From a virus, in IMG/VR virus record IMGVR_UViG_3300010033_000001, positions 1 to 64,000 of that record: a DNA stretch of 64,000 nt; one strand, 5' to 3'. Below the pieces are notes generated by a model. That model was not told where the DNA came from. It saw only the letters and a program-made list of their open reading frames with translations, and searched no databases. Position 1 is the stretch's first letter. The number at the start of each line of letters is the position of its first letter. Both the position numbers and the translations under genes were made by a program. Below are positions 1 to 16,364 of this stretch, piece after piece.

Positions 1-124
1 TAGCTTGGCCTGCATAGAATTGGGCTTCCATATCATTACCTAATTCCTTAGCCTTAAAAAAATTCTCTTTAAATTCTTCGAGACGTTTTTCAACTTTCTC
101 TTTAAGTTCTTCCGCCCTTAACAT
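1..124 (-). CDS. hypothetical protein, 5' fragment (continues past window start)
   Basis: ATG at 124-122 overlaps the TAA (118-120) of the upstream ORF. Frame stays open to position 1. Begins MLRAEELKEKVEKRLEEF (Lys/Glu-rich). Confidence 0.3.
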   Translation of the reverse strand, partial: MLRAEELKEKVEKRLEEFKENFFKAKELGNDMEAQFYAGQA

Positions 125-486
125 TCCTGGCCTCCTTTCTCTTGCTGATTATTTGCCTCTATGAATTTCTCAAATAGTCCTTCAATACCATGAATATTAC
201 CGACCCATTCAAGAGTATATCCATTAGGATATAGTTCAAGGTATCTCTTCTTTCTTCTTTGATTAAAACCTACAGTACTGTGTTCAATGTCAGTGAATGA
301 ATCCCATTTCAATAAAATAGGATCTGTAAATCCTAAATCACTTTTTGCAAATCCTTCTGAACTACAGAAATGTGAATCTATAATATTGCCAGTATCTCCA
401 TCAATCGAATATGCTTGACAGCCGAACTCAGTGTAATTAGTAATTACTCCATAAATGACAGGTAAATTATTTTCTTGATTACTCAT
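118..486 (-). CDS. hypothetical protein
   Basis: ORF 118..510. The Met at 486 gives an 8-nt overlap with the stop (479-481) of the upstream ORF. No recognisable motif. Confidence 0.45.
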   Translation of the reverse strand: MSNQENNLPVIYGVITNYTEFGCQAYSIDGDTGNIIDSHFCSSEGFAKSDLGFTDPILLKWDSFTDIEHSTVGFNQRRKKRYLELYPNGYTLEWVGNIHGIEGLFEKFIEANNQQEKGGQEC

Positions 487-715
487 TACTTTCTCCTTCC
501 TTAACTTCAATATGAAGCTGACTAACTGGGTAGTACTCGGTTATTTCATTATCCTTGATGTAATCAATAGCATCTTCAATGTCTAGAAATGTACTATCAA
601 GAATTACCTCTTGCGGATCAGCTTGACCTTTAGTTATATAAATACATTCAAGTCTTATCTGAAACATTACTTTCTCCTTTCTGTATGTCGTGTATAGATT
701 CAATTTTATCAGCAT
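479..715 (-). CDS. hypothetical small protein (start may be the internal Met at 667)
   Basis: ORF in the minus-strand gene train; overlaps the end of 648..1403. No motif. Confidence 0.35.
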   Translation of the reverse strand: MLIKLNLYTTYRKEKVMFQIRLECIYITKGQADPQEVILDSTFLDIEDAIDYIKDNEITEYYPVSQLHIEVKEGESNE

Positions 716-1403
716 TCTGATTCATTAAGATTAGATGCTGTTGGGCCACCTTAGCGATTTCAAACGAAGATTTGATTTTTTGATAGTCAATTGAATCGTT
801 GGGCGTTTCATAGCTTTTATTCTCTTCAAAGAACTTAACCCAATCATCTGTTTTCTTTTCTCTACAGCCGATTTTAATAGTCTCCATGTAAACAATTATT
901 TGCCACTTACAATAGCTGTTTATGACTATGCCCTGGACTATCTGGTCGCCATTGACTCTCTGGTAGCCATTGACTCTCTGGTCGCCCTGGACTATCTGGT
1001 AGCCATTGACTATCTGGTCGCCCTGGACTATCTGGTAGCCCTGGACTCTCTGGTAGCCATTGACTCTCTGGTAGCCATTGACTCTCTGGTCGCCCTGGAC
1101 TATCTGGTAGCCATTGACTATCTGGTAGCCCTGGACTCTCTGGTCGCCATTGACTCTCTGGTAGCCCTCGACTATCTGGTAGCCATTGACTCTCTGGTCG
1201 CCCTCGACTATCTGGTCGCCCTGGACTATCTGGTCGCCCTGGACTCTCTGGTAGCCATTGACAAAAAGGTTCTTACACTGAATTGATCCTGTTTTAATTA
1301 ATTCACCTTCCAGATAAATATTCTCATCCGGCATGATGATATCTTGTCCTTCTTTGAAGTCTATTACCTTATATTGAATTCCGTAAATGTTTATCGTTTT
1401 CAT
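648..1403 (-). CDS. hexad-repeat protein: 18 near-identical x-G-[DY]-Q-[IR]-V units between unique N- and C-terminal domains
   Basis: 251-aa ORF with a Bacteroidota-type promoter 30 nt upstream. The central part is encoded by an 18-bp tandem DNA repeat. Confidence 0.7.
   Translation of the reverse strand: MKTINIYGIQYKVIDFKEGQDIIMPDENIYLEGELIKTGSIQCKNLFVNGYQRVQGDQIVQGDQIVEGDQRVNGYQIVEGYQRVNGDQRVQGYQIVNGYQIVQGDQRVNGYQRVNGYQRVQGYQIVQGDQIVNGYQIVQGDQRVNGYQRVNGDQIVQGIVINSYCKWQIIVYMETIKIGCREKKTDDWVKFFEENKSYETPNDSIDYQKIKSSFEIAKVAQQHLILMNQNADKIESIHDIQKGESNVSDKT
931..1262. repeat. 18-bp tandem repeat, 18 full units plus a partial one, in frame within CDS 648..1403
   Basis: Units such as ccctggactatctggtcg / ccattgactctctggtag read directly. 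Units differ only at three codons. Confidence 0.95.
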
Positions 1404-1433
1404 TGTCTTATTGTTTTGTTGTCTTGCTTATAA

Positions 1434-1464
1434 CAAATGTAACAAAAGAATCTATACAGACAAA
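1434..1464 (-). promoter_or_regulatory. Bacteroidota-type promoter (TTTG-N19-TAcaTTTG)
   Basis: The minus strand reads TTTG (1464-1461), 19 nt, then TACATTTG (1441-1434). It lies 30 nt upstream of the ATG at 1403 and is part of the conserved box TTTGTTACATTTGTTATAA. Confidence 0.7.
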
Positions 1465-1502
1465 TTTTTTCCGTAATTTTTTACTGAATTTTTTCAGGGC
1501 AT

Positions 1503-1528
1503 AAAAAAACCAGGGGTGACTCCCCTGG
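1503..1528 (-). terminator. Rho-independent terminator
   Basis: 7-bp stem CCAGGGG/CCCCTGG with a 5-nt loop, followed on the minus strand by T7. Confidence 0.7.
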
Positions 1529-1630
1529 CAACTTTAAATGAGAAAAAACGACCGGTCTTATCCGGAAGTCACATAAATGTAATTGATGTACTTTAAAATT
1601 CAAACTCGAGGGAATTCTAGAATTTCTAGA

Positions 1631-1660
1631 ATAAAAGAAGCCAGGCCGTCATAGCCTGGC
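1631..1660 (-). terminator. Rho-independent terminator
   Basis: 7-bp stem GCCAGGC/GCCTGGC followed on the minus strand by TTCTTTTAT. Confidence 0.55.
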
Positions 1661-1715
1661 TAAATGAAAATTACCATGTTTAACCTTACCCAAAGGTTAT
1701 TCAAATATATGTGTT

Positions 1716-1741
1716 TGGCAACTATATACAAAGTGGGACAA
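1716..1741 (+). repeat. left 26-bp terminal inverted repeat TGGCAACTATATACAAAGTGGGACAA
   Basis: Exact reverse complement of 6681..6706. Confidence 0.95.
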
Positions 1742-1976
1742 AGGAAAAAATGCTGGCTCTAAATGCATATGCTTGCATTTTTTCAAATCACGGTAGATCC
1801 CTTGTGCCATGAAAGACTCGTGATATTTCGGGGAACCTACGGAATGTCAAAGAACATTCGCAGCTGCCAGTGTCGCCGATCATCTACAACGGCGCCCCTG
1901 GCATACGGCCAAAACCGACTGCTATTTACACACGCGTATTAGTTTTAAGGTTTCTGAATACACAAAAACCGATTAA

Positions 1977-2207
1977 TTATTTTCCATTCTCACCAAGCCA
2001 GTAATCTAATTCCCATTCACTTATCTCAAGCTGATCTAACGCTATTCTCTTAAGCAAGAGAAACGAAATTCTTTTAAACCCGGTAGGTATCTGGATCAAT
2101 GAGGAATCTTTTAGGACCCAAATATCTTTTCCATTCCTTTTACCTAAAGGGTTTCCGCCGTGTTTATAGATAAGATCTTCTACTGACTTTTTAGAAAACG
2201 TGTACAT
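1977..2207 (-). CDS. hypothetical protein, weak HicA-like pattern without the catalytic His
   Basis: 76-aa ORF 16 nt downstream of a HicB-like gene. The pattern ...LIQIPTGFKRISFLLLKRIALDQL resembles the HicA C-terminus only loosely. Confidence 0.3.
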   Translation of the reverse strand: MYTFSKKSVEDLIYKHGGNPLGKRNGKDIWVLKDSSLIQIPTGFKRISFLLLKRIALDQLEISEWELDYWLGENGK

Positions 2208-2222
2208 ATAAAAATACTGAAA

Positions 2223-2564
2223 TCAAGCGTATGCCAGAACCCTACTCATACTTGGATTAAATACTGGACTATTAAAAAGTTTTGGCTTTTTAAATGTGTT
2301 ATCGGATTTTTTCCATCCAAGATTTCTTAATGCTTCTTCCAATGTACCTAACTCAGAATGAACCTGAAAAAAAGTGTCTAAGGCCGATTTTAGGTCATTG
2401 ATTGCATCTTCCTCGCTGACTTTAGAATATCCGATTGTCTTAAAATGAGGACTAAACAATATCCATTCCCCATCAGACTCTTCAACACTTACTTTTAAAT
2501 CATTAATTTCCAAGGAAATCGTATTGCCGAAACTATCACTTACTATTTTTAATCTAGTATCCAT
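2223..2564 (-). CDS. HicB-like (UPF0150-fold) protein
   Basis: The motif WILFSPHFKTIGYSKVSEEDAINDLKSAL matches the HicB/UPF0150 N-terminal domain pattern (read by eye). Confidence 0.45.
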   Translation of the reverse strand: MDTRLKIVSDSFGNTISLEINDLKVSVEESDGEWILFSPHFKTIGYSKVSEEDAINDLKSALDTFFQVHSELGTLEEALRNLGWKKSDNTFKKPKLFNSPVFNPSMSRVLAYA

Positions 2565-2730
2565 AATTCTCCCCCCTTACTCAAGTTGTTTGTGTGACAC
2601 AATATATAGGTTTTTTATCTCCTTTAAAATCACCTATACTATCACTAACGAAAAAACCCCACCAAAAGATGATCTTTCTTAAATCCCTTACTCTCCAAGA
2701 ACCTTCACAAGCTAACATTGTTGTCTATTA

Positions 2731-3066
2731 TCAAGCAGTCATTAAATAATGGTATTTATTAGTAATTTTTCGTTGAATTGAAAAATTGACTGCCTCACTA
2801 GGTAGAACTTGGCCAGATACCTTTCTGATTTTGATTTTCTTTGACTTCAAATATTCTTCAATGGTACCACGCTTTTTGACTGATTCAAAAAGACACATTA
2901 TAGCCTTCCGAAAATTTATAGAAGCTTCATCGCTCGTTGATCCACTTACGACAATATTTAAATCAGGTGAGTGAACTATAAAGTCTCCTTGATCAATATA
3001 GCTAGAAGCTATTACCTCAAACATCGTCTTAGTTGCTTTCATGTCATATTCACATTTAGTTGTCAT
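2731..3066 (-). CDS. HicB-like (UPF0150-fold) protein (start possibly the Met at 3042)
   Basis: FIVHSPDLNIVVSGSTSDEASINFRKAI shows the same fold signature as the neighbouring gene. Confidence 0.4.
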   Translation of the reverse strand: MTTKCEYDMKATKTMFEVIASSYIDQGDFIVHSPDLNIVVSGSTSDEASINFRKAIMCLFESVKKRGTIEEYLKSKKIKIRKVSGQVLPSEAVNFSIQRKITNKYHYLMTA

Positions 3067-3092
3067 GCAAAATTACAGGTTTTTACAATTAT

Positions 3093-3120
3093 AAAAAAAG
3101 CCCGTCGTTTCCGACAGGCC
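3093..3120 (-). terminator. Rho-independent terminator
   Basis: GC-rich imperfect hairpin (cccgtcg tttc cgacagg) followed on the minus strand by T7. Confidence 0.55.
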
Positions 3121-3185
3121 CCTTAACCAACTTGCAACTGATAAACTATTGCATTACTATGCAAAAGAATCACAATAAAGTGATT

Positions 3186-3494
3186 CTAATTCTTATTTTC
3201 AAGTTTCTGAAGGTTTTCCTTTAAATACTTAATCAGAATTTCACCTTGTTCAATATCGGCATCAAGTATATTAATACTGTGCTCAAGCTGCCTGCTATGC
3301 CTTTTGGCAAGGTCATTTGCCAGATGCTCACGCTGTGCCTTCATTTGATTGAGCTCAAAGGTCGCCTCACCGAGCTCGGTCTTAATTGTGTCGATTGTCA
3401 TACTTTGTTTGTCATTTATGGTTACCTTCAATACCTCATCGAATGTGGCGTTGATTTTGAATTTCTCATTGTATCGATTCTTTCTTTTAGTCAT
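3186..3494 (-). CDS. coiled-coil protein
   Basis: 102-aa ORF whose ATG overlaps the transposase stop by 8 nt. Heptad-like, Glu/Lys/Leu-rich. Confidence 0.5.
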   Translation of the reverse strand: MTKRKNRYNEKFKINATFDEVLKVTINDKQSMTIDTIKTELGEATFELNQMKAQREHLANDLAKRHSRQLEHSINILDADIEQGEILIKYLKENLQKLENKN

Positions 3495-4452
3495 ACCTCA
3501 TGTTTGTTAATTCATCATAGCTTAAAGGCGCCTCACTGCTTTCCAGGAACTTATGCATCCTTTCTGATGCACTCATAGCCCGGGCATTGAAAACGGCAGC
3601 AAACGCATTCAAATACCTGTGCAAATGCTTTTCGCTTATCTGGTGGTGAACACCGTATATGGAACGTTTAAAGAGACTCCAAAAATTTTCTATGCTATTA
3701 GTGTGTACCTGGCCATCGACATACTTCGAAAGGCGGTGCAATATGGTGGCATGGTTGTACCTCTTGTTCAGGTCCATGTATGACTTATTCTCATCGGTGT
3801 ATATGGTGGCACCTGCCGGTACTTTCTGATTAATGAATTCCAAGAGGTGCTTTTTCTTACCGCTGGGCATGTACCTTAAAACGATTTGACCGGATCGCTC
3901 CATGATACCCATGAGCATTTTTTTAGGCTTGTAGGGTGTGCCATCATTTCTAAAATTACCGTTGTTCGGGTCACGCTTGCGGCCAAAGTGTTTGTTCTTC
4001 TCCTTTCCATCAATCCAAGCTTCATCAACCTCAATGGGTCCGGAGCAATCCAAGAACTCAGGTTGTTGCTCCTTAAGCATTTCGCGGATTCGGTGCATCA
4101 TGAACCAGGCTGTTTTCTGTGTGATGCCTAGCAATTCAGCCAGGTAGGGACTAGTGACGCTTTTCTTACTTGTGGTTAGGATATAGATCGCCCCGAACCA
4201 TATTCTCAATGGCTTCTTAGTATTCTGAAAAATAGTTCCGACCAACACCGTGAATTTTTTCCTGCAGTCTTTGTTACTGCACTTATAACCACGATTCGTT
4301 TTGTAGGGCTTTTCACTTTGGCAATGCGGGCACCTGGGCTTGCCGTTCCATCTAATTTGTTCGTAGTACTCGATTGCCGTTTTTTCATCACGGAAATAAT
4401 CGAGCAAATGAGGTAGGGATTTGAAATTCATGTCGTAAATAATCGTTGTCAC
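3487..4452 (-). CDS. IS1595-family (ISXO2-like) DDE transposase
   Basis: N-terminal zinc ribbon (CPHCQS...CSNKDC), an HTH region, then an ISXO2-like core (EVDEAWIDGK...IYTDENKSY...HTNSIENFWS). Confidence 0.8.
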   Translation of the reverse strand: MTTIIYDMNFKSLPHLLDYFRDEKTAIEYYEQIRWNGKPRCPHCQSEKPYKTNRGYKCSNKDCRKKFTVLVGTIFQNTKKPLRIWFGAIYILTTSKKSVTSPYLAELLGITQKTAWFMMHRIREMLKEQQPEFLDCSGPIEVDEAWIDGKEKNKHFGRKRDPNNGNFRNDGTPYKPKKMLMGIMERSGQIVLRYMPSGKKKHLLEFINQKVPAGATIYTDENKSYMDLNKRYNHATILHRLSKYVDGQVHTNSIENFWSLFKRSIYGVHHQISEKHLHRYLNAFAAVFNARAMSASERMHKFLESSEAPLSYDELTNMRYD

Positions 4453-4499
4453 TTCAAAGATAAGACATGTCCCAATAACTACCTAATTTTTTAACAACT

Positions 4500-4727
4500 T
4501 TAAAATTCAAGTTCAGTTTCCAGCAGATCAGGCAGGTCCATTTCCAGGCCCTCGCATACCTCGAGTAAAAAAATGAAGCTGGGATTTACCCTGCCTCGCT
4601 CGAGTCTATTAATTGAAGGCTGATCCTTACCGATCTTATGTGCCAAATGCGTTTGTGAAATTCCCATTCGTGTGCGTACTATTTTTACTTTTTTCCCTAA
4701 CTCTTGCAACCTCCCGTCATCTTTCAC
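4500..4727 (-). CDS. XRE/Cro-CI family helix-turn-helix regulator
   Basis: GISQTHLAHKIGKDQPSINRLERGRVNPS is a canonical HTH_3 signature. Confidence 0.85.
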   Translation of the reverse strand: MKDDGRLQELGKKVKIVRTRMGISQTHLAHKIGKDQPSINRLERGRVNPSFIFLLEVCEGLEMDLPDLLETELEF

Positions 4728-4769
4728 AATGAAAAGGTATTCTATTTCAAACAGAACAATTATAACCGA

Positions 4770-4789
4770 TTTGTTATATTTGTAACAAA
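4770..4789 (+). promoter_or_regulatory. plus-strand copy of the phage promoter box (TTTGTTATATTTGTAACAAA; -7 element TATATTTG at 4775-4782)
   Basis: Lies in the divergent gap between XRE (start 4727) and the plus-strand gene (ATG 4803). There is no clean TTTG at -33. Confidence 0.45.
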
Positions 4790-4802
4790 AAAATTGATCT
4801 AT

Positions 4803-5273
4803 ATGAAAGTTTTTAAAAAACCATTCAAGAGGCCTTACCTATTGACAATGGTCTTTTTATTTGGTGCGTTGATGTTTAGCCGATCTGTGTTTTCCAATCC
4901 TGAGCAAGGTACTATCGTATCACTGCACGAGCGTCTTATGACAAAGTACTTTGAGGTAACGGCCAATGATGTGAAAATATCATACGATCATGGAACAACG
5001 TTAATGGTCAACCTTACTTATAAAAACATTGATTCCAAAAATCGGAAAATTGAAAATGGACATGTATTCGTAAAAGGCAAGGGCGGTAAGACCTACAAGA
5101 TTGATGTTACTTTAACTAAAACATCGAACGCGGTTCATATGCAATTAAAAACCCAAACATCAATCAAAATCGATATAGCATTTAAGATCCCTAATAGTAT
5201 GTCAGGTAGGATATATTATCAACCGGCCGACTCATATGAGGGGTCTTTCATAGACTTAGGAGAATTATATTGA
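4803..5273 (+). CDS. secreted/exported protein
   Basis: The Met at 4803 gives the signal-peptide-like N-terminus MKVFKKPFKRPYLLTMVFLFGALMFSRSVFS. The track ORF 4704.. starts further upstream in the promoter region. Confidence 0.6.
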   Translation: MKVFKKPFKRPYLLTMVFLFGALMFSRSVFSNPEQGTIVSLHERLMTKYFEVTANDVKISYDHGTTLMVNLTYKNIDSKNRKIENGHVFVKGKGGKTYKIDVTLTKTSNAVHMQLKTQTSIKIDIAFKIPNSMSGRIYYQPADSYEGSFIDLGELY

Positions 5274-5295
5274 TTTTTAACAAATCTGAAATATT

Positions 5296-5484
5296 ATGTG
5301 TAATGAAGATTTTAGAGAATATGCAGAAATGCTTCAAAGAAACCTCGGTTTGATACCTGAATTTATCATTTATGCTGAAGCCTACTTAAAAGACGTTGGC
5401 ATCGAACCAAATGAAGAAAATCAGGAAGAATGTATGGAGCTCTTACTGAAGTTTGCACAGGATCTAGCTAAGGAATCTGATTGA
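5296..5484 (+). CDS. small acidic protein
   Basis: 62-aa ORF 23 nt after the previous stop. Confidence 0.4.
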   Translation: MCNEDFREYAEMLQRNLGLIPEFIIYAEAYLKDVGIEPNEENQEECMELLLKFAQDLAKESD

Positions 5485-5487
5485 GAG

Positions 5488-5601
5488 ATGCATAAGATGC
5501 CCACACATTCAAACGACTCGGTATTGCTCTTGGTATTCATTGGGGTCATAGTATTGGTAACTGCCATGCTACTGAAACACGACAAAAAGAAAGGTTCCTG
5601 A
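5488..5601 (+). CDS. 37-aa single-pass membrane peptide
   Basis: Hand-translated as MHKMPTHSNDSVLLLVFIGVIVLVTAMLLKHDKKKGS. Starts 4 nt after the previous stop. Below the ORF-track size cutoff. Confidence 0.35.
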   Translation: MHKMPTHSNDSVLLLVFIGVIVLVTAMLLKHDKKKGS

Positions 5602-5735
5602 CGACCACTTATTGAGATTGTATTTTTAAGTTCTTAAAAATTCACTACATTCAAGCATTGGCTTGCTGGGACAAGCAAGCTGGTAGATCAGCTGTACCTA
5701 TACGGTGTCATCGTATCGGGTACCGCACTCAGTGG

Positions 5736-5763
5736 GGCCGGCTATATGCCGGCTCTGTTTTTT
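5736..5763 (+). terminator. Rho-independent terminator
   Basis: GCCGGC tatat GCCGGC followed by TCTGTTTTTT. Confidence 0.55.
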
Positions 5764-5792
5764 AATAGCGATGTCAAATTAAACTTTACGAT

Positions 5793-6062
5793 ATGATAGG
5801 ATGGCAAGATTACTATGAGTACATGCATAGTGTACAAGAATCAATGATCGAAAACATGAAACCGATTGTTGATGATGATCCAAGCACTCAATACTTAAAA
5901 AGGTCGAATGAAAAGATCAAATTGGAACGGCAATTTGCAGAAGCATCGATTCAATTCATGCAATCAAATGGTATACCTGCAAGTCATGAAAATTATACAA
6001 TCAGTACTGCGATGATGCTGCCGTTATTAAATGAATTATATAGAAAGCGGATGACTATGTGA
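5793..6062 (+). CDS. hypothetical protein
   Basis: 89-aa plus-strand ORF followed by a terminator. Confidence 0.45.
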   Translation: MIGWQDYYEYMHSVQESMIENMKPIVDDDPSTQYLKRSNEKIKLERQFAEASIQFMQSNGIPASHENYTISTAMMLPLLNELYRKRMTM

Positions 6063-6098
6063 ATAAGTCGAATACTTGTACATAACCATGTTGAAAAC

Positions 6099-6135
6099 AA
6101 AACCCTGTCAAATTGATTGATAGGGTTTTTTGTTT
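6099..6135 (+). terminator. Rho-independent terminator
   Basis: AACCCT / AGGGTT stem with a 15-nt loop, followed by TTTTTTGTTTG. Confidence 0.45.
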
Positions 6136-6186
6136 GTAAATTGGTCCGGAATAAAAAAGACCCCATCAATTAAGATGGAGTCTTCA

Positions 6187-6269
6187 TATCCAGTGATGAA
6201 AGCCGTATAGACACCAGTTTAGAAAGCTGGCGCTCGCAAAGCATGTCGGTTCGAATCCCATCTGGACTA
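6187..6269 (+). tRNA. degenerate class II tRNA-like element or tRNA fragment (anticodon position reads AGA)
   Basis: Good anticodon arm CCAGT-TTAGAAA-GCTGG, a variable-arm hairpin GCT-CGCAA-AGC and a T loop TTCGAAT. The T stem has a C-C mismatch, the acceptor has only 5 bp and no D stem could be drawn. Confidence 0.3.
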
Positions 6270-6278
6270 CTATTTATT

Positions 6279-6364
6279 GGCGCAGTGGCGAAATCGGTAA
6301 ACGCATCAGATTTTGACTCTGATATCCGTCCCAGGATTTGTCGGTTCGAATCCGACCTGCGCTT
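6279..6364 (+). tRNA. class II tRNA (long variable arm, Leu-like D arm) with anticodon UUG (Gln by anticodon)
   Basis: Acceptor GGCGCAG/CTGCGCT (G1-U72 wobble), U8, D stem GCG/CGC with loop AAATCGGTAAA. Anticodon stem TCAGA/TCTGA with loop TTTTGAC (anticodon 6313-6315). 17-nt variable arm with an ATCC/GGAT stem. T arm GTCGG-TTCGAAT-CCGAC. Confidence 0.7.
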
Positions 6365-6373
6365 CTATTTATC

Positions 6374-6444
6374 AGTGCCGTGTCCGAGTGGCCAGGTAAT
6401 GTGGTTGCCCCCCATTTACACCGGTTCGAATCCGGTCGGCACTT
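6374..6444 (+). tRNA. 71-nt tRNA-like gene, anticodon ambiguous (GCC or UGC)
   Basis: Perfect acceptor AGTGCCG/CGGCACT and T arm ACCGG-TTCGAAT-CCGGT. Ser/Tyr-like D loop GAGTGGCCA, but the D and anticodon stems are weak. Confidence 0.5.
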
Positions 6445-6475
6445 CAAAGATAGGCTTTTAGGCCTATCAAGTATT

Positions 6476-6553
6476 GGGGGAGTAGCTCAACCCGGATAGA
6501 GCGTCTGACTTAAAATCAGAAAGTTGCGGGATCGTACCCCGTCTCCTCCACCA
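6476..6553 (+). tRNA. class I tRNA with anticodon UAA (Leu by anticodon), 3' CCA encoded
   Basis: Acceptor GGGGGAG/CTCCTCC (one G-U), D arm GCTC-AACCCGGATA-GAGC, anticodon arm TCTGA-CTTAAAA-TCAGA (anticodon 6511-6513). 5-nt variable loop, T arm GCGGG-ATCGTAC-CCCGT, then A-CCA. Confidence 0.8.
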
Positions 6554-6623
6554 ATTTTATAAGGGCTTAATTGCCCTTTTTTCTTTTAAGGCATCATGAT
6601 GCCGTTGTTACAAACTTATCTAT

Positions 6624-6649
6624 AGTTGCCGAAAAAAGGCAACTTTTAT
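6624..6649 (+). terminator. Rho-independent terminator closing the tRNA array
   Basis: Perfect 7-bp stem AGTTGCC/GGCAACT with loop GAAAAAA, followed by TTTTAT. The stem reuses the GGCAAC core of the cassette inverted repeats. Confidence 0.65.
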
Positions 6650-6680
6650 CAAAATATTTTTAAGAGGTTAAAAATAAACC

Positions 6681-6706
6681 TTGTCCCACTTTGTATATAG
6701 TTGCCA
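6681..6706 (-). repeat. right 26-bp terminal inverted repeat
   Basis: TTGTCCCACTTTGTATATAGTTGCCA is the exact reverse complement of 1716..1741. Confidence 0.95.
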
Positions 6707-6735
6707 GTGCCTTATAACCACCGAGATAAAGGTAC

Positions 6736-6766
6736 AAAAAAAACCAGCCGATTCAGAATCGACTGG
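6736..6766 (-). terminator. Rho-independent terminator after the terminase operon
   Basis: 10-bp stem (9/10 paired) CCAGTCGATT/AATCGGCTGG followed on the minus strand by T8. Confidence 0.7.
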
Positions 6767-6846
6767 CCAATAAACACACACATTTTAAAAACGTTAGGAT
6801 AACCCAACACATGAAGATAAACATATTTTTAACAAGTACAAAATAA

Positions 6847-8526
6847 TTACCGCAAAATGTACGGCGCTATCGTTGATTGTCCAAGCTTGCGATTCTTACG
6901 CACCCAATTCCAATATACTGCTGCATCGAATATATTAGGTGACTTACCGCCCAAACGCTTTTTGATTTGATCCTTAGACTCGATTTTGATCATCTTGTCT
7001 GATATGCTGTACTTCACCAATGTACACTGCTTGACAAATTCCTGAAGCGTTCTAGGATCAGCGATATCGACAATGAAATCACGATGCATAAGATCCAGAC
7101 GGAATTGAAACATCATTTGCGCCCTGAGTGATGCAAAGGTGTATTTGGGGTTACCCTCGCGATCAACGGGTATACAGTCCATATCAGGACCACCTTGCAA
7201 ACCGATCACACTATAGTTCAATCTTGCAAATTCGTTAATGGTACCAACACCAACACCAACTGCATCGACTCCTACGGATTGATGATCAACACCCTGATGC
7301 TTTAACTTCCAAGTATGATAAATCGGAATACCGTGTTGCCTCAGGTGCTCATCATCATTCACCAGATTATCAGCCAGGGCATTTGCGTTTGGACATTGGA
7401 ATTCATTGATGCGAGTCATCACATTACGCTTACCCCACACCAAACAGGCCTTATCACCAGCCTCAGAGTTGGCCACGTCAACACCTAGTGCATTATTGCA
7501 ATCTACTATGTGCTTATTAGTGCCGTCATCGTTCAGTTCATTCTGATCGAGGATGTTATGATCATATTCCTTACGCTGAGTACAGCAAGCTACTATCCAT
7601 TCATGCATGATCAGCGAGTCACTGGATTGTGCCGGTGCAATACCTCGAGCTCGAGACTTAAAGAAGGGTGAATCTTCTCCATATTCCTCACGCCGTTCAT
7701 CAATCGACTGAATGGTAACAGCCCCGGGAATGATTTCTTTTTTGTTGACTACGTTAGGGTGATCATAGCCTGATATGATGATGTGGTGAGTATTAGGACG
7801 CTCACAAAACAGGTGTAATGCATCGGTTTGAGAATCAGGGTTACCAATGGCACATATGACATTGTTTTCACCTGTACAAGTGTTCACAATGGCTTTCACT
7901 ACTGCGGGTGATATCCCGGCAGTTTCTTCGAGTAAGAAAAGCATATTTTTGGCATGGTATCCCTGCATCTTTGTGGCTGACTCCTCATCGGCACCGACTC
8001 CGGAAACCACACCGATCATTTGGTGCGCGTCGTTACCTTCCTCATCCATGTGTTTGTTCAACCTCATACGTCCATCCGGAAGTATTCGTAAGCTGTACAG
8101 CTGGGCACGGTTGTTCATTTTCCTGAACTTTTTAAAGCCCTTGGCCACTTCTTTCCATAGAATAGTTTTGAGTTGTGTAAGCTTTGGAGCTGTGGCTATC
8201 ACTATTGAGTCCTCATATACATCCAAGAACCAATAGGCAAGGCGGGCCACCATGTAAGTCTTGCCGGTGCCCGTGGCTGACTCAATGCCAACGTTCTGTT
8301 TATTGGCTAAGGCCTTGCATGCTTCCAAGAATGGGTTCACTGTTCCATCCCATTGGTGATTTTCATATCCGCCATGTACTGTCCAGTCCAGTGAGCCGAT
8401 CGGTTCCTTAAACTTTTCTATCATCCACTTATCGGGATATCGCTGGTAATACTTTCTTTCAACTACTTTGTGTAATTGTTCCAGCATTTGCCGCCTTGTA
8501 ACGTGCGGATGATTTGTGACTGTCAT
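6847..8526 (-). CDS. terL: terminase large subunit
   Basis: Walker A GIESATGTGKTY, Walker B-like MLFLLEE, C-terminal nuclease-sized domain. ATGA overlap with the upstream small-terminase candidate. Confidence 0.8.
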   Translation of the reverse strand: MTVTNHPHVTRRQMLEQLHKVVERKYYQRYPDKWMIEKFKEPIGSLDWTVHGGYENHQWDGTVNPFLEACKALANKQNVGIESATGTGKTYMVARLAYWFLDVYEDSIVIATAPKLTQLKTILWKEVAKGFKKFRKMNNRAQLYSLRILPDGRMRLNKHMDEEGNDAHQMIGVVSGVGADEESATKMQGYHAKNMLFLLEETAGISPAVVKAIVNTCTGENNVICAIGNPDSQTDALHLFCERPNTHHIIISGYDHPNVVNKKEIIPGAVTIQSIDERREEYGEDSPFFKSRARGIAPAQSSDSLIMHEWIVACCTQRKEYDHNILDQNELNDDGTNKHIVDCNNALGVDVANSEAGDKACLVWGKRNVMTRINEFQCPNANALADNLVNDDEHLRQHGIPIYHTWKLKHQGVDHQSVGVDAVGVGVGTINEFARLNYSVIGLQGGPDMDCIPVDREGNPKYTFASLRAQMMFQFRLDLMHRDFIVDIADPRTLQEFVKQCTLVKYSISDKMIKIESKDQIKKRLGGKSPNIFDAAVYWNWVRKNRKLGQSTIAPYILR

Positions 8527-9353
8527 TCGTCTTTCATTAAGTCACCCAATTTATCAACATCAATGTCAACCAGGTTTTCCCCGGCTGCTGCCTGCATTTT
8601 CTTTATACTCTCAATGATTTCTTCCTCGGTCAGCTGGGCACCGCTGTCATCATCAATGATACTCCTGGGGTCAATGGTGCCATACATAAGGTACATCATT
8701 TTCATTTTTTCCCTGGTTGCCATCATGGCCCCTCTATAATCCTGTTTACTGACTAGCATAGTGAACAGCATTTCCATGCGCCTCTCATACATGGCAGCCT
8801 CTAGCTTAGGTTTCATCCTGTAGTTGTATACTATCTGTTCTTTGGCCTTACTGATAAGGTCGTCAACGATGCTGGTATTCTTAATGTCTACCGCAGACCA
8901 TAAATAGAATTCCGGTATGTCCAGCATTTCCGGGCTTTTCTTCAGCTGGTCTTGTATGGCTCGGATCTTCTCAATGATTTGTTCACGGGTGAGGGCCAGG
9001 ACCAGCCAGCCCATAACATGCTCAACCTGCTTTAAGAATTCCTTATCCTCTTTGGTTTGTGGACGCTCAACCGGTTTGATCGGTAGTATCCCCAAAGGCT
9101 TGATCGTGGGTCGCTCAACCTTTGGCAAATCAATCTTAAGTAGCTCTTTTTTGAATTTGCGGTCTTTCTTAACCTGTTGCCTGTAAATGTTGACCCATTT
9201 ATATTTTTTGACATATCTATCAAGCTGCCTTTTGGACACGTTGAACATAGGCGCCATAATCTCAAATATCTGATTATCAGTACCTCGCGGGCATTCTTCA
9301 TAGAATTTCTTGTGTACCCTTAATTCAATCGGTGTAATCGCACCTTCCGCCAT
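8523..9353 (-). CDS. putative terminase small subunit / DNA-binding packaging protein
   Basis: Immediately upstream of terL and overlapping it. Basic HTH-like N-terminus (NVSKRQLDRYVKKYKW). Call is by position only. Confidence 0.45.
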   Translation of the reverse strand: MAEGAITPIELRVHKKFYEECPRGTDNQIFEIMAPMFNVSKRQLDRYVKKYKWVNIYRQQVKKDRKFKKELLKIDLPKVERPTIKPLGILPIKPVERPQTKEDKEFLKQVEHVMGWLVLALTREQIIEKIRAIQDQLKKSPEMLDIPEFYLWSAVDIKNTSIVDDLISKAKEQIVYNYRMKPKLEAAMYERRMEMLFTMLVSKQDYRGAMMATREKMKMMYLMYGTIDPRSIIDDDSGAQLTEEEIIESIKKMQAAAGENLVDIDVDKLGDLMKDE

Positions 9354-9534
9354 AAATCAACTATATGTCGAAAAATAGTAAAAAACTTGACACATTCTTT
9401 TGTTACATGTCAAAGATCGGCTGCACCCAATTTGTAACAAGTGCGTTTATGAGGCGCAAACATCATATTTATCGAAGATTTTTCATTTTTTGCCGCGTGT
9501 CAAACTTTCGTTATCGGGTTGAGGGACCCAGGCA

Positions 9535-9744
9535 TTATTTCTCAATTGTTGGGTTCTTCAATTGATCAAGATATCGGTTCTTTTTGGCAATCTTACGGTT
9601 TAATGCTTCGATCTTGATTTGTGTTTGTACCAAATCACCTTTTAGGCTTCTTAACTGACGACCGTAATGTCCAAGATCGTTTGTGCACAGTAAGATTTTT
9701 TCGTTGATCTCCTCTTGGGTTAATTGCTTTTTATCTCTTTGCAT
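9535..9744 (-). CDS. small coiled-coil protein
   Basis: 69-aa ORF, heptad-like. Confidence 0.4.
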   Translation of the reverse strand: MQRDKKQLTQEEINEKILLCTNDLGHYGRQLRSLKGDLVQTQIKIEALNRKIAKKNRYLDQLKNPTIEK

Positions 9745-9996
9745 AACGGTTTTTTTTAAGCCCGTCTTTCCAGGCTGTCAGTCTTTGAACACCTTAAGCC
9801 ATACAATGGGCAGACTCTAAGTCTGCGAGAGGAAGCCATAATCAGATGTCCCAATGCCTAAGATGAACCCGACAAGGTTCGCCTCATTTTATCCTCTCAA
9901 ATAGTTCTTTTCAACCAATGCTTTAGGCTACTCGCTCACGGTCGTATCTGTGAAATCCGAATAGTTCAGGTGTGGGCTTTCACCTAAAGCTGATTG

Positions 9997-10078
9997 TGGC
10001 GATGGCAGGAATCGAACCTACAACCTTACGGACTCCGCAAGTGCATGAGCGGGGCTAACCAATATCCCCATCATCGCT
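9997..10078 (-). ncRNA. tRNA-like element with canonical acceptor, D and T arms but no anticodon loop
   Basis: The minus strand reads AGCGATG-AT-GGGG-ATATTGGTTAG-CCCC ... GTAGG-TTCGATT-CCTGC-CATCGCC-A. The anticodon position is a closed hairpin CTC(A)TGC-ACTT-GCGGAG followed by CC-GTAA-GG. Confidence 0.45.
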
Positions 10079-10092
10079 TCTTTAAATAAGTT

Positions 10093-10322
10093 AGGAAATA
10101 AACAGGATTCGATACCTGTAACCGTTCATGACCGGATATTTCGTCTTCTACTAGAATTACCTATCCGTTACATGGCGCTCTGTACAAAGCACCAATGTTC
10201 ACTATAGACCCTCCTGCCCTCGCAGGTGTGCAGTATTACACCAAATCACCAACTAATATGCGTTACTTATCACAAGCTGCATGGGTTAGTCCCCACCGCT
10301 ACGCGCTTCCGCCACTATTCCC
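10093..10322 (-). ncRNA. candidate ~230-nt structured RNA closed by a tRNA-type acceptor stem with G3-U70
   Basis: 5' GGGAATA pairs 7/7 with 3' TATTTCC (G3-U70 wobble). Leu-like D-arm string GTGGCGGAA at the 5' end and a T-arm-like ACAGG-TATCGAAT-CCTGT at the 3' end. Internal hairpins GGTGT/ACACC, CCTGC-GAGG-GCAGG and GGTGCT-(T)TGTACA(G)-AGCGCC (6 bp; 7 bp if the adjacent T-G wobble is counted). Confidence 0.3.
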
Positions 10323-10381
10323 TATTGATTAAGTCAATTTTCCAGGTCACGTCTTGATCCTGGTCAGTAGCCAAAGACAGG

Positions 10382-11176
10382 TTACCCTAATCCTTGGCTA
10401 TTTTCGGTTTTTAATTCTCGCATGCTTAACTGTTTAGGTTCCTGTTTCTTTACCTGTGCAGGGTTGAATAACTGACCCTGTTTGATATGGTTCTTTAACC
10501 TTTCGACCCCTGCTTTATAGTAGTCTTCATCAATCTCCCATAGGTCCAGATCAAAGCCTAAATCATAACATGCTATTGCTATGCTCATAGAGCCTCCATG
10601 AGTGTCTAGAATCCTATCCCCAGGTTTGGCATAGTTCTGTAATAGCCACTTGTAAAGGGCTACAGGTTTTTGTGTGGGATGAATGCGCTTATCAATACCA
10701 GTGTTATCCCAATTAATTTTTCCCCCTTGCTTGTTACCGCTCCATTTATATCTAAAAACTGTGATTCTTTTTTGAAGTGAGCAGCTCGCTAAGTCACCAT
10801 GAGAGAAGTTAATTTTGGTTCCTTAAAAATCAGTTTCCTTGTCATGAAATATTCTACCTTTGGATGTGATATAACTCGCATAGTAATTACAACCCCAGAT
10901 GATTTGGTTTTCAGTCACTAAATGAAGTGATTTAAAATAGTTCTCTTTAGGAATAGAGTCATTCCAATCCTTGTTTTTATGTATTGATGGGTACTTTTTA
11001 CCGTTAGCTTGAGGAAAGTTTTTACCCGCGGCACCACTTCCATTAATCATATCAAGACCAATTCCATACGGAGGATCCACAATGGCCAAATGGTAGGACT
11101 TCTCTTTCATGGATTTCATAGCTTTCATACAATCCCCATGATACAGGTTAATATTTGGTGTCTTGCTTACGTTCAT
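10382..11176 (-). pseudogene. DNA methyltransferase (N6_N4 type, DPPY...HPTQKP...GGS) interrupted by an in-frame TAA at 10823-10825
   Basis: ORFs 10823..11176 and 10382..10588 share one frame. Hand translation across the gap is continuous: ...HDKETDF*GTKINFSHGDLASCSLQKRITVFRYKWSGNKQGGKINWDNTGIDKRIHPTQKPVALYKWLLQNYAKPGDRILDTHGGSMS... Confidence 0.75.
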
Positions 11177-11182
11177 AGACTC

Positions 11183-11857
11183 TCAGTTTTCTAGATCAAA
11201 ATGATCAACAATATACATCAAACAATCCTCAGTTGACTTGAATCCGGTTTTCTGTTTGACTGCATTGATAAGGTTGTATAACCGCTTTCGGTTTTCCTCA
11301 CGCATTGGCAGGTCAAAGTGCACATGCCCATGGTCAGTGATTACTCCTGATCCTGATTCAAAGGGTTTGACATCCTTTACAGCGACATCAATCGTATCAG
11401 CTGCGTTAGTGATATCAGCTGCAATACGATCGATGTTCACACCTTCATATGACAGTGTGCTTTTAAGCCAATCGTTATCGATTCCCTTGACGAACTTGAT
11501 CATGTTGTCACGATCGATTTTACCATACTGTGAGGTGATCACCAGCAAACGCTGTTTAGCTTCTTTTCGGCTTTTGGCCAGGATTTCAATGTATGGTATT
11601 TCGAAGGGCTCGACCTCATGCTTAGTAAGGGTTATGATACGTTGGTGGCCATCGATGCAATGGGCGACTTTGCTTTTGTCAAACCATACGATAATGGGTA
11701 CAAAGAAACCGTTGTTTTCGATTGAGTTGAGCAGCTTATTTTCATCCTTTTGTGATAATGTCTTCAGATCACCCTGCAGTAACTGAACCGATCTGTAATC
11801 AATACACGGCAGGTCATTAGGGTTAATAATTTTCATGTTTGGTTTTTTTAACAACAT
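11183..11857 (-). CDS. ParB-like nuclease-domain protein
   Basis: The N-terminal ParB/Srx-type motif ...VPIIVWFDKSKVAHCIDGHQRI; adjacent to a methyltransferase, as is common in phages. Confidence 0.55.
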   Translation of the reverse strand: MLLKKPNMKIINPNDLPCIDYRSVQLLQGDLKTLSQKDENKLLNSIENNGFFVPIIVWFDKSKVAHCIDGHQRIITLTKHEVEPFEIPYIEILAKSRKEAKQRLLVITSQYGKIDRDNMIKFVKGIDNDWLKSTLSYEGVNIDRIAADITNAADTIDVAVKDVKPFESGSGVITDHGHVHFDLPMREENRKRLYNLINAVKQKTGFKSTEDCLMYIVDHFDLEN

Positions 11858-11939
11858 AAAAAAAGCCGATTAAAAAACCAGCTTTTCAGTGACAACTTTA
11901 GCTTTTCATTACGACATGAAAGCATGTCACAAATGTAAC

Positions 11940-11970
11940 GAAAAAATTGTGTATGGCAATCACAATTTTG
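11940..11970 (-). promoter_or_regulatory. promoter box (TACATTTG -7 element, weak -33 ATTG)
   Basis: The minus strand has TACATTTG at 11947-11940, lying 83 nt upstream of the ATG at 11857 and just downstream of two terminators. Confidence 0.45.
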
Positions 11971-11988
11971 CAGTATATAAAAAAAGCG

Positions 11989-12011
11989 ACCTGATGGCCG
12001 CTTATGACTCC
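11989..12011 (-). terminator. Rho-independent terminator
   Basis: GCGGCC-ATCA-GGTCGC followed on the minus strand by T7. Confidence 0.65.
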
Positions 12012-12058
12012 CAATTAAGCAAACTATAGATATTACACTATACTGTTTTAAAGGTAAT

Positions 12059-12085
12059 AAAAAAAAGCGCCCGAGTCAAGGACGC
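12059..12085 (-). terminator. Rho-independent terminator (tandem with 11989..12011)
   Basis: GC-rich imperfect hairpin followed on the minus strand by T8. Confidence 0.5.
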
Positions 12086-12246
12086 TTATTTACTAAACAT
12101 ACCTATGGAAATATGACATCTCAATAGTTAGGTTTAGAACACATTGTATTACCTTAAAAATTCAGCACCGTCTGCGCTGCCTCAACCTATCTAGTAATTC
12201 TGCTAGCCTGTTCAAGGGTTAACATTTTAAACTTAATCAAAAAACG

Positions 12247-12819
12247 TCAGTCGACAAAATATATTTTACTGGGTGTCAATAATTTCAGTGGCGCCTTCCC
12301 CTCATCATTAAATATGAGTTCATCATTTTCCCGGGGCTTGTTGGCAAGTGGCCTTGCAATGGCGATCATGTAACCCGGTATTGTGACGTAATCGCTTCCT
12401 GACCCTAAGTACAGGTTAAAGTCACGATCACCATGGCCATAATATCCGATTTCTTTTTGCTTATCCATGTTGTTAAACCCATAGAAAGCACTGTACTGTT
12501 TGCCATCGGGTGCGGTCACAGGCTCGATTGTTTCGATGTATACATTGGTGAGGCTCTGCAATTGCAAGAATATGTAAAACTTATTGACCTGGGGTATATT
12601 TTTGGTTTCAATGCCATTGTATTGGAACTGACCGGTACGGCGATAGAGCCATGACTGTTCGAGGGCTGTAAACTCAGCACACTTGATTTTAGCGATGTCA
12701 TGGCTTTTATACCTGGCGAAGGTGGGAACGTACCACCCGTAGCGAGAAAGTCTGTATAGGCGGTACCAGCGGTCGTGATGTGGCCCTTTTGGCTTGACTA
12801 TGAATAACGGCTTATGCAT
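12247..12819 (-). CDS. hypothetical protein
   Basis: ORF 12247..12906. The Met at 12819 (MHKPLF...) gives an ATGCATAA overlap with the upstream stop. Confidence 0.5.
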   Translation of the reverse strand: MHKPLFIVKPKGPHHDRWYRLYRLSRYGWYVPTFARYKSHDIAKIKCAEFTALEQSWLYRRTGQFQYNGIETKNIPQVNKFYIFLQLQSLTNVYIETIEPVTAPDGKQYSAFYGFNNMDKQKEIGYYGHGDRDFNLYLGSGSDYVTIPGYMIAIARPLANKPRENDELIFNDEGKAPLKLLTPSKIYFVD

Positions 12820-13099
12820 CGTCCAATTTTTCCAACAAAACCGGAGCACCCTTGTGATACACCTTTTTGAAATCAGCCAAGCCATTGGGGTAACTTTGAG
12901 TGGCATTTCTTATCAAATGTTCTGCATAAGGTTCAGGTACTAAACCTTCAGCGGGATGGATATAATAATTATACTCGATTGCATGGGCTTCAATATTATT
13001 GATTTGCCAATCATGACTATCACTCCACAATATAACTTTCTTTTCAAGCTGCTCATCAGGCAGCTGATTGCAAAATTCCTTTAGTTCTTTCCAATTCAT
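12812..13099 (-). CDS. hypothetical protein
   Basis: 95-aa ORF in the gene train. Confidence 0.5.
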   Translation of the reverse strand: MNWKELKEFCNQLPDEQLEKKVILWSDSHDWQINNIEAHAIEYNYYIHPAEGLVPEPYAEHLIRNATQSYPNGLADFKKVYHKGAPVLLEKLDDA

Positions 13100-13103
13100 G
13101 TTT

Positions 13104-13454
13104 CTAAATTTTTCGGTTAGGCACTTGGACTATGTGGGCATATTTGAAATTGGTTTCAGGGGGCCCATATTTTTTGATGACCTCAACAAGATCCTCGTCA
13201 TTGAAATGCACCACAGCCTTAGACAACTCAACTGCATCTACTTCGACCATTGCATAATAACTTGGTAATGTCGATTCAAGCCTCATCATCAGTTTAAACC
13301 CATCTTTAGCCAGGTCACTGACCTTTACTATTTCTGTCGTCAGTTTATCAGCTGTGCCGCATATCGCGGGTAATTCAATCGGGTTCATCTTTGGTCCGAG
13401 TTTAACTCGCTTAGCATCTTTAGGTACAACCTTTAGGCTTTTTTTATCGGTCAT
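13104..13454 (-). CDS. hypothetical protein
   Basis: 116-aa ORF in the gene train. Confidence 0.5.
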   Translation of the reverse strand: MTDKKSLKVVPKDAKRVKLGPKMNPIELPAICGTADKLTTEIVKVSDLAKDGFKLMMRLESTLPSYYAMVEVDAVELSKAVVHFNDEDLVEVIKKYGPPETNFKYAHIVQVPNRKI

Positions 13455-13468
13455 TGATTATTGTGGTT

Positions 13469-13726
13469 TTAGGGTTTTCTTGAGTTTTTCACCAATTCGC
13501 CAATCTCTTCCATGATATCGTTTTTGGCTACTGAATAACCCATTTGATACCCTTTTCTGGATGCCTCGTCAACGATTTCATTGAACTTCTTAAGATTCTC
13601 ATTTAAGCCTTTTTTATATGCGACATTGGTTTCTTCGGCAATCCATTGACACAAAGAAAAGCCTTCTCTGACCATAGCTTGATTCATTAGATCCTGTACT
13701 TCTTTTTCATTAGTATAATTTTCCAT
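13469..13726 (-). CDS. hypothetical protein
   Basis: 85-aa ORF in the gene train. Confidence 0.45.
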   Translation of the reverse strand: MENYTNEKEVQDLMNQAMVREGFSLCQWIAEETNVAYKKGLNENLKKFNEIVDEASRKGYQMGYSVAKNDIMEEIGELVKNSRKP

Positions 13727-13736
13727 AATGTTGTTT

Positions 13737-14183: not shown

Positions 14184-14467
14184 AATTCTATCACCCCCCT
14201 TCCCTGACATGCCGGGCATGAAATCACATTCAAGCTTACCCCATCGTATTTAACTCCGGTACCATTGCAATGGCTACATATTGCTTTGCGTTTCGGTTTT
14301 CGTTCCGGGTCAGCGAATCCTACACGGTATGCCAGGTTACATCTTTGGCGGCACATTGCGCCCGGTTGATGACATGGGCCATCCTCGAAAATCTGGCAGT
14401 CATGCATTTTACTGTTTGTTGTCGCCATGGCATCGGCCAAGGCTGCAAGCTCTTTTGTTCTTCCCAT
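14180..14467 (-). CDS. DnaJ-type zinc-finger mini-protein
   Basis: Two CxxCxGxG motifs (CSHCNGTG, CPACQGRG) plus additional Cys residues. Confidence 0.6.
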   Translation of the reverse strand: MGRTKELAALADAMATTNSKMHDCQIFEDGPCHQPGAMCRQRCNLAYRVGFADPERKPKRKAICSHCNGTGVKYDGVSLNVISCPACQGRGVIEL

Positions 14468-16246: not shown

Positions 16247-16264
16247 TGTTCATCTGATTTATAA

Positions 16265-16295: not shown

Positions 16296-16307
16296 TTTTT
16301 AACAAGT

Positions 16308-16334: not shown

Positions 16335-16364
16335 CATTACGATTGCACCTGATTGCGATATGGC

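Follow-up and report, generated by a model that had tools for sequence, protein, structure and literature searches.

A cargo-bearing IS1595-family element in the genome of an uncultured tailed phage

What kind of DNA is a multi-gene block that lies between perfect inverted repeats in a phage genome? The question is raised by a stretch of 64,000 nucleotides (positions 1 to 64,000 of the IMG/VR virus record IMGVR_UViG_3300010033_000001), referred to below as the window. Near one end of it, the 26-mer TGGCAACTATATACAAAGTGGGACAA (1716-1741) recurs as its exact reverse complement (6681-6706), and between these repeats lie one transposase gene, about ten other open reading frames (ORFs) and three tRNA genes. 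An earlier note, made from the letters of the window, had proposed a cargo-bearing IS1595 transposon in an intergenic junction of a phage, and had named an invertible segment and a pair of regulator-binding sites as alternatives. In our view there is roughly a 90% chance that positions 1717-6705 are a copy of an IS1595-family transporter insertion sequence (tIS), because the same ends bound relatives that have 8-bp target duplications and homologous transposases.

Terminal repeats and the elements that share them

The inverted repeat is, as had been claimed, far beyond chance. Allowing up to three mismatches, the two arms are the only matches to the 26-mer in 64 kb, and 100 dinucleotide-preserving shuffles gave no match. 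A position-weight model of the ends, made from 12 family arms, scores each arm at 37.7 bits, against 14.8 bits for the runner-up site in the window and a shuffle maximum of 24.8; the same scan finds the two arms only, with no internal full-length third repeat. On the inner side of the repeat, similarity ends sharply at 26 nt and there is none further in. The elements of the relatives described below all begin at GGC, and the true ends of the window element are therefore 1717 and 6705, the outer T (1716) and A (6706) being flanking bases that are complementary by coincidence. The family-defined end is thus 25 nt long (1717-1741 and 6681-6705), the element proper extends over 4,989 bp from GGCAAC (1717) to GTTGCC (6705), and the end consensus of the family is GGCnnyTATATAC-n5-GGGACAA. 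The repeat features are as follows, L numbers denoting related loci.

1717-1741, plus strand: terminal inverted repeat, transposase-distal, GGCAACTATATACAAAGTGGGACAA; the same end is present in L015 (Ekhidna), L008 (Kordia), L003, L033, L034, L017 and L035
6681-6705, minus strand: terminal inverted repeat on the cargo and tRNA side, from repeat comparison and position-weight scan
6617-6643, plus strand: TATCTATAGTTGCC, a copy of the tip inside the element that matches at 12 of 14 positions, with a hairpin GTTGCC-GAAAAAA-GGCAAC and a T-run

To find other copies, a 22-nt repeat tip was scanned across one genome per bacterial species and other loci were then searched with mismatches allowed. The scan matched a single genome, a metagenome-assembled genome of Ekhidna, in which a 2,907-bp element has inverted repeats around a homologous IS1595 transposase and TTTGTAGT on both sides. 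Altogether, 25-nt ends of the same form bound seven other elements, six of which are flanked by a perfect 8-bp direct repeat. Several of these elements carry the same substitutions relative to the window repeat in both of their arms. Five of the seven come from bacteria (marine Bacteroidota) and encode transposases 54-60% identical to that of the window. Besides the Ekhidna element, the copies found were:

Kordia element: 3,911 bp, target duplication GTTACAAC
Roseivirga element: 3,625 bp, target duplication AGTAAAGG
Winogradskyella element: 4,386 bp, target duplication CCTATCCA
Seonamhaeicola element: 4,475 bp, target duplication CCAACAAG
L017, IMG/VR phage contig: 2685-3641, 957 bp, no transposase, target duplication ACTATTTA
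L035, IMG/VR phage contig: 5687-7620, 1,934 bp, no transposase, no target duplication
L018, IMG/VR phage contig: 9856-9880, solo end, no partner within 10 kb

That the same ends bound six elements with 8-bp duplications bears out the proposal of a cargo-bearing IS1595 transposon in a phage intergenic junction. What defines the IS1595 family is a DDE transposase with a zinc ribbon, together with GG-starting ends and a duplication of 8 bp (PMC8101967), and a tIS, an insertion sequence (IS)-like element with passenger genes, is known from the IS1595 and IS66 families only (bioRxiv 10.1101/2021.05.26.445724). The window element resembles IS1595 tISs in its single zinc-ribbon DDE transposase, its short GG-starting repeats, its passenger genes and its size within the 1-5 kb range, and its relatives add the 8-bp target duplication. 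It differs in lying in a phage replicon, in its tRNA cargo and in having no target duplication of its own, and its family differs in a conserved micro-ORF and a sub-terminal hairpin.

Within the IS1595 family, an N-terminal zinc ribbon is present in all groups except IS1016, and passenger genes are carried by the ISNwi1 and ISNha5 subgroups. The definition of tISs is reportedly that of Siguier, Gagnevin and Chandler in 2009, with ISfinder/TnCentral. The tip GGCAACTAT and the E-x7-K spacing of the window transposase may fit the ISNwi1 consensus of ISfinder ('ggnnatTAT / DDEK').

Compound transposons (Tn10; Tn7560, formed from ISApl4; PMC12561309) also hold cargo between inverted IS ends. A structure of that type was considered for the window and rejected: there is one transposase gene, the 25-nt arms have no similarity beyond themselves, and no IS copies flank the block. 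Another comparison is with non-autonomous viral derivatives of insertion sequences that resemble MITEs, miniature transposable elements with inverted repeats (PMC11602168). L017 and L035 are like these in having the same ends without a transposase on phage contigs, but both still carry ORFs, and the window element, which is autonomous, has ten times a typical MITE's size.

Two further observations concern the sites at which the bacterial copies lie. An ssb gene adjoins three of them (L008:3092-3424; L033:5134-5466; L034:8792-9124), and TTTGTAGTCGTTTGTAA occurs in the right flank of the Ekhidna copy as well as in that of the Kordia copy. The ssb neighbours and the common TTTGTAGTCGTTTGTAA suggest either a target preference or a common genomic island.

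The internal tip copy listed above had also been seen earlier, as a recurrence of the GGCAAC core of the repeat in the hairpin of the tRNA terminator, and a GTTGCC/GGCAAC hairpin does lie there, at 6625-6643. Placed 51 nt inward of the real arm, the copy is the sole further match in 64 kb at up to two mismatches, with 0.64 expected per window. A second hairpin made of tip hexamers, GGCATC-AT-GATGCC at 6590-6603, has the tips of the Kordia/L017 variant. The hairpins at 6590-6603 and 6617-6643 might be what is left of nested ends, might serve as decoy sites, or might be terminators that arose by chance.

A conserved core and exchangeable cargo

The transposase unit and the sub-terminal features, on the minus strand, are as follows.

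3487-4431, minus strand: IS1595-family DDE transposase, 314 amino acids, ATG at 4431 (MNFKS...), with a CPHC...C...C zinc ribbon and D135, D212, E247 and K254
3186-3494, minus strand: 102-amino acid ORF, in an 8-nt overlap with the transposase stop; the micro-ORF motif K-I-N-A-T-F-D-E-V-L-K-V is in its N-terminus
3095-3124, minus strand: intrinsic-terminator-like site (terminator scan) that ends the transposase and 102-amino acid ORF unit
1841-1921, minus strand: conserved sub-terminal non-coding block, TTTTGGCCGTAy, hairpin, ATGyGAATACGyTCTTTGAC; outer stem 1866-1870 with 1898-1902
1744-1785, minus strand: A-run, hairpin and T-run just inside the end, read from alignments and not scored by the terminator scan

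The assignment of the transposase to the IS1595-type DDE enzymes, made previously from its translation, passes the thresholds of both Pfam and NCBIfam: it scores 130.1 bits with DDE_Tnp_IS1595 (PF12762, cut-off 27) and 176.8 bits with NF033547 (cut-off 75), and its N-terminus scores 38.8 bits with Zn_ribbon_IS1595 (PF12760, cut-off 25.4). Its closest homologs (54-60% identical) are from marine Bacteroidota. It aligns over its full length with five relatives, with the zinc-ribbon Cys/His residues and D135, D212, E247 and K254 all kept, and the start codon is placed at 4431 because the homologs indicate so. There are no close-in inverted repeats around the gene, either in the window, as had been noticed, or in the relatives; the real ends are 1.3-3 kb away from it. 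The 8-nt overlap of its 3' end with the next ORF (3487-3494) is likewise confirmed. With a full-length, conserved transposase and identical ends, the window copy looks functional and would be of recent origin or else maintained by selection.

When the ORFs of five elements were compared all against all, only two genes were found in common, the transposase and a micro-ORF of ~40 amino acids. The 102-amino acid ORF that begins with the micro-ORF motif is, with the transposase, the sole window ORF common to L015, L008 and L003. The motif reads F-(D/E)-(D/E)-V-L-K-V, or in a longer form K-I-x-G-(T/S)-F-(D/E)-(D/E)-V-(L/I)-K-V-S, and the micro-ORF, conserved in every autonomous element, is found at L015 ~2713-2832, L008:7534-7653, L003 ~7212-7340 and L035:7169-7330, the last of these in the 1,934-bp phage-borne copy that has no transposase. 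The micro-ORF had no family match.

Two non-coding features complete the picture. All six transposase-encoding (autonomous) elements have a terminator-like hairpin at the position equivalent to 1744-1785, and a block ~190 nt inside the transposase-distal end is common to five of these elements (the window, L015, L008, L003 and L034). When the pairing in this sub-terminal block was tabulated by hand across the five, the outer stem had canonical pairs in 25 of 25 cases, with compensatory changes at four of its five positions, and the inner stem paired in every element, each time with a different sequence. Rfam gave no match for the block, and nothing but tRNAs in the window or in four related loci. 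The block could be a regulatory RNA or a site that acts at the DNA level. On these comparisons the core of the family is its two ends, the transposase, the ~40-amino acid ORF and the sub-terminal hairpin block, and the rest is exchangeable cargo.

What that cargo is differs between the bacterial and the phage-borne copies. Matches to anti-phage defence proteins (PDC-S33, RmrA-like, PD-Lambda-2_B-like) are present in three of the five bacterial copies. One of these proteins is RelA/SpoT-like and matches PADLOC PDC-S33 (E = 3.5e-113), another is of the HTH-M78 type and matches RmrA (E = 2.4e-53), and a third, PD-Lambda-2_B-like, is found together with a P63C-domain protein; a RadC protein is further bacterial cargo. 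These defence-type and RadC cargo genes are at L015:389-1546, L034:5207-6265, L033:981-2836 and L008:4176-4616. The phage-borne copies have none of the PDC-S33, RmrA-like, PD-Lambda-2_B-like/P63C or RadC cargo. Tn7-like and other defence-cargo transposons offer a parallel, in that three bacterial members of the window family carry defence-matching cargo, but this family has a single DDE protein and no target selector, and its phage-borne copy in the window has no recognisable defence gene.

The cargo of the window copy, with the tRNA genes, is as follows.

1977-2207, minus strand: 76-amino acid ORF, no match in Pfam, PHROGs, NCBIfam or PADLOC
2223-2564, minus strand: 113-amino acid ORF of an unannotated family, paralog of the 111-amino acid ORF
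2731-3066, minus strand: 111-amino acid ORF, paralog of the 113-amino acid ORF
4500-4727, minus strand: HTH_3 regulator of the XRE type, immediately upstream of the transposase; called in ENA as a gene of 55 amino acids
4803-5273, plus strand: 156-amino acid ORF with an N-terminal hydrophobic segment and a weak DUF4352 match under the Pfam cut-off, divergent from the XRE gene
5296-5484, plus strand: 62-amino acid ORF, from the ORF list
5488-5601, plus strand: 37-amino acid ORF with one hydrophobic stretch; a terminator-like site lies downstream at 5731-5759
5793-6062, plus strand: 89-amino acid ORF, with a terminator-like site at 6099-6129
6190-6270, plus strand: tRNA-like remnant whose T-arm and spacer have 80% identity with those of the tRNA that follows; no ARAGORN or Rfam call
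6279-6365, plus strand: tRNA with anticodon UUG (Gln), 87 nt, long variable arm, Rfam 61 bits
6374-6445, plus strand: tRNA-Gly (GCC), 35.9 bits, gathering score 29
6476-6553, plus strand: tRNA with anticodon UAA (Leu), class I length, encoded CCA; a terminator-like site follows at 6561-6578

The plus strand of the block thus holds the 156-amino acid ORF, three small ORFs and all the tRNAs found in the window, and these are, as had been observed, the only plus-strand genes of the window. The XRE regulator reported in the cassette is supported by its HTH_3 match. For the tRNAs, the earlier count of four stands in part: all those of the window do lie in the cassette, but ARAGORN and Rfam call three, and 6190-6270 goes uncalled. 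The UUG (Gln) tRNA combines a class II body and long variable arm with a G1-U72 pair. The 156-amino acid protein and the tRNA block had no informative phage matches, and none of the window cargo matched a defence family in PADLOC.

By contrast, the HicB fold that had been ascribed to the 113- and 111-amino acid proteins is not supported by sequence searches of Pfam, NCBIfam, PHROGs, PADLOC or the PDB. No HicA or HicB family in the first four matched these proteins or the 76-amino acid ORF, and no HicB model of Pfam matched among 61 aligned family members that included both window paralogs. A profile search of the PDB with the family, which has at least 140 cluster representatives, returned nothing below E = 0.5. 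The AlphaFold2 single-sequence model of the HicB-labelled protein has a predicted local distance difference test score of 48, too poor for a fold search.

The phage setting and the missing target duplication

Outside the element, the window is the genome of a tailed phage whose genes run one way; they include those for terminase, capsid, baseplate, SNF2 helicase and amidase. The terminator scan found minus-strand sites at 6768-6742, 1661-1639 and 1529-1509, on both sides of the cassette as described, and the cassette lies in non-coding DNA that separates the terminase terminator from the transcription unit after it. The nearest terminases have at most 59% amino acid identity and many of them are on 69-73-kb contigs; tblastn of the terminase gave distant matches only (at most 26% identity), and tblastn of the transposase gave only four weak phage records. 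No match was returned by megablast of positions 1-9500 against 50,697 phage records, nor by terminase-based locus searches of IMG/VR and the JGI metagenomes, and the exact repeat was absent from searches of IMG/VR and of JGI metagenome contigs. As judged from these comparisons, the window belongs to a ~70-kb phage lineage without a close sequenced relative. Its host is probably a marine member of the Bacteroidota. Three of the terminase relatives (P0165, P0183 and P0225) are ~880-910 amino acids long and have PF05203/PF05204 domains, with PF14528 in one; these are presumably intein or homing-endonuclease domains.

If positions 1717-6705 are a tIS copy, the 314-amino acid transposase, with its zinc ribbon and DDE(K) core, would, by analogy with the family, bind both 25-nt ends, pair them and join both to a target cut with an 8-bp stagger, such that all the DNA between the repeats would move as a unit. 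The element would in this way have inserted in the gap beside the terminase terminator of the ~70-kb tailed phage. A later adjacent deletion, or recombination from copy to copy, might then have removed phage DNA at one end, and the loss would offset the 5 kb added to a size-limited capsid.

Several results weigh against so simple a history. The window flanks, ATGTGTTT and AGTGCCTT, have no direct repeat, and no 6-mer is common to the two 20-nt flanks, which counts against a simple insertion in one step at this site. Between the window transposase and those of elements with identical or nearly identical ends, identity is no more than 54-60%, and the window enzyme may therefore not be the one that acts on these ends. 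Neither an empty site nor a second copy was found, and the unusual tRNAs may mean that the block was acquired in the phage and not brought from a bacterium. Related phages had been proposed as the place to look for the empty site. The closest terminase relatives, however, have no gene in common with the flanks or the cassette, and the empty site can therefore not be reconstructed; the relatives of the L035 phage are likewise too divergent for this comparison.

The lack of an 8-bp duplication, already recorded in the earlier note, is exceptional within the family. Examined with a single script, all junctions taken together give duplications of exactly 8 bp in six of the seven other complete family elements. 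Stated by setting, the duplication is intact in five of five bacterial copies, as against one of three complete phage-borne copies, and the fourth phage contig has a solo end. The absence thus appears to be specific to the copy and points to a later rearrangement, not to another family. In another IS1595-family element, the copies without direct repeats were those involved in rearrangements (PMC12561309). Since duplication-less copies are tied to rearrangements there, we infer that the window element may have lost its duplication in a second event subsequent to insertion, whether an IS-mediated deletion of adjacent DNA or a copy-to-copy recombination.

The explanation that competes best with delivery by transposition is that the 4,989-bp unit was assembled in the phage in two steps, either by a deletion that fused two nearby family members or by a rearrangement that put a pre-existing phage block of tRNAs and small genes between the ends. 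The absent target duplication and the atypical tRNAs would both fit such an origin, as would the plus-strand block 4803-6553, a separate divergent unit with its own terminators, and the 12-of-14 tip copy 51 nt inside the real arm. The other phage copies are aberrant too (no duplication in L035, a solo end in L018), and non-autonomous members are present in phages (L017, L035). Set against this, the position-weight scan shows no full-length repeat inside the block, and the cargo is arranged as it is in bacteria, where genes likewise lie to either side of the transposase and part of them run on the opposite strand. Nor do the related phages that were examined have tRNAs beside the terminase, or any cassette gene downstream of it. 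We regard assembly within the phage as unlikely, though it deserves to be taken seriously.

Far less probable is the suggestion that the repeats are operators, bound by the XRE protein or another phage regulator and bracketing an accessory module in which the transposase is a passenger or domesticated gene. It would account for the XRE gene inside the block and for repeats that are intergenic and beside terminators. In the other elements, however, the repeats accompany IS1595 transposases and no XRE homolog, and their place is precisely where the element meets the duplicated target DNA. A TTGTTA...TAACAA palindrome (~4772-4789), in the divergent intergenic region between the XRE gene and the 156-amino acid ORF, is a more plausible XRE operator. 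Because the repeats recur with target duplications in unrelated genomes, they are to be read as transposon ends and not as phage operators, and the regulator-binding alternative is set aside.

An invertible segment, with the repeats as crossover sites at which a site-specific invertase flips the 5-kb block, we consider still more improbable. A perfect inverted repeat around the only plus-strand genes of the window, with no target duplication, is what such a segment might look like, and the G (Gin) segment of Mu and the C (Cin) segment of P1 likewise have inverted repeats around a multi-kilobase block in a tailed-phage genome. Those segments, however, come with an adjacent serine invertase and alternative tail-fibre genes, and the window has a DDE transposase and transposon ends instead. 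No serine or tyrosine recombinase was found among the nine cassette ORFs (Pfam) or 20 mid-size ORFs of the window, beyond which ~6 kb of the genome lies. The same repeats flank unrelated cargo in six genomes with 8-bp duplications, which inversion leaves unexplained, and the ENA contig has the block in the same orientation as the window.

The weakest explanation, that a bacterial transposon was joined to a phage contig through common repeats during assembly, can draw on the metagenomic source and on a break in the ENA assembly (window position 1557/1558) that is 160 nt away from the element's left end. A graph of k=141, however, is not one that a 25-nt repeat could bridge, the break is in phage DNA beside an 18-nt tandem array collapsed by a small contig, and the terminase and cassette proteins are on record in JGI/IMG, ENA and Logan, in contigs 70,226 and 66,072 bp long. 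Over 1557-18526, moreover, the ENA contig is identical to the window; with the records from three sources, this means that the cassette is not a one-off product of assembly.

The break itself separates contigs of 66,072 and 1,468 bp that do not overlap. It was considered as an alternative junction of the element and rejected, the adjoining contig being the next piece of the phage. The tandem array beside it has ~17 units of 18 nt (876-1325) within the ORF 648-1403, is collapsed in the ENA contig k141_341750, and encodes a (G-D/Y-Q-I/R-V-Q/N) hexapeptide array; the 251-amino acid protein that contains it has weak tail-fibre-like PHROG matches.

A transposon lineage of bacteria and phages

Phage genomes seldom hold insertion sequences, which are believed to be purged from them quickly (PMC3429520, PMC11602168). 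The IS1595 tIS lineage described here is of a known kind, found where such elements are unusual: it is uncommon for a phage of ~70 kb to have a tIS of 5 kb that is complete and apparently functional, the more so with tRNA genes inside it. Copies of this one transposon lineage occur in bacterial chromosomes as well as in phage genomes. For an uncultured phage, the occurrence of identical 25-nt ends in an Ekhidna genome is a concrete lead to the host. In an IS family that has been little studied, the micro-ORF and the covarying hairpin are candidates for regulatory parts; in a limited literature search we met no earlier description of either, or of the contrast between defence and other cargo. 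The pattern of missing duplications suggests, from a small sample, a link between transposition and deletion under the constraint of packaging.

Taken together, these observations allow a broader and much more speculative picture, which we put forward tentatively: the lineage may act as a shuttle that carries cargo between marine Bacteroidota and their phages, is governed by the micro-ORF and an RNA, and leaves duplication-less copies in the phages. If so, it would move defence-matching cargo in cells, and tRNAs, regulators and possibly counter-defence proteins in phages. Its activity would be governed by the micro-ORF together with a structured sub-terminal RNA, and its copies in size-limited phage genomes would typically lack the duplication through compensating adjacent deletions or copy-to-copy recombination. 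The lineage would then be a driver of phage mosaicism.

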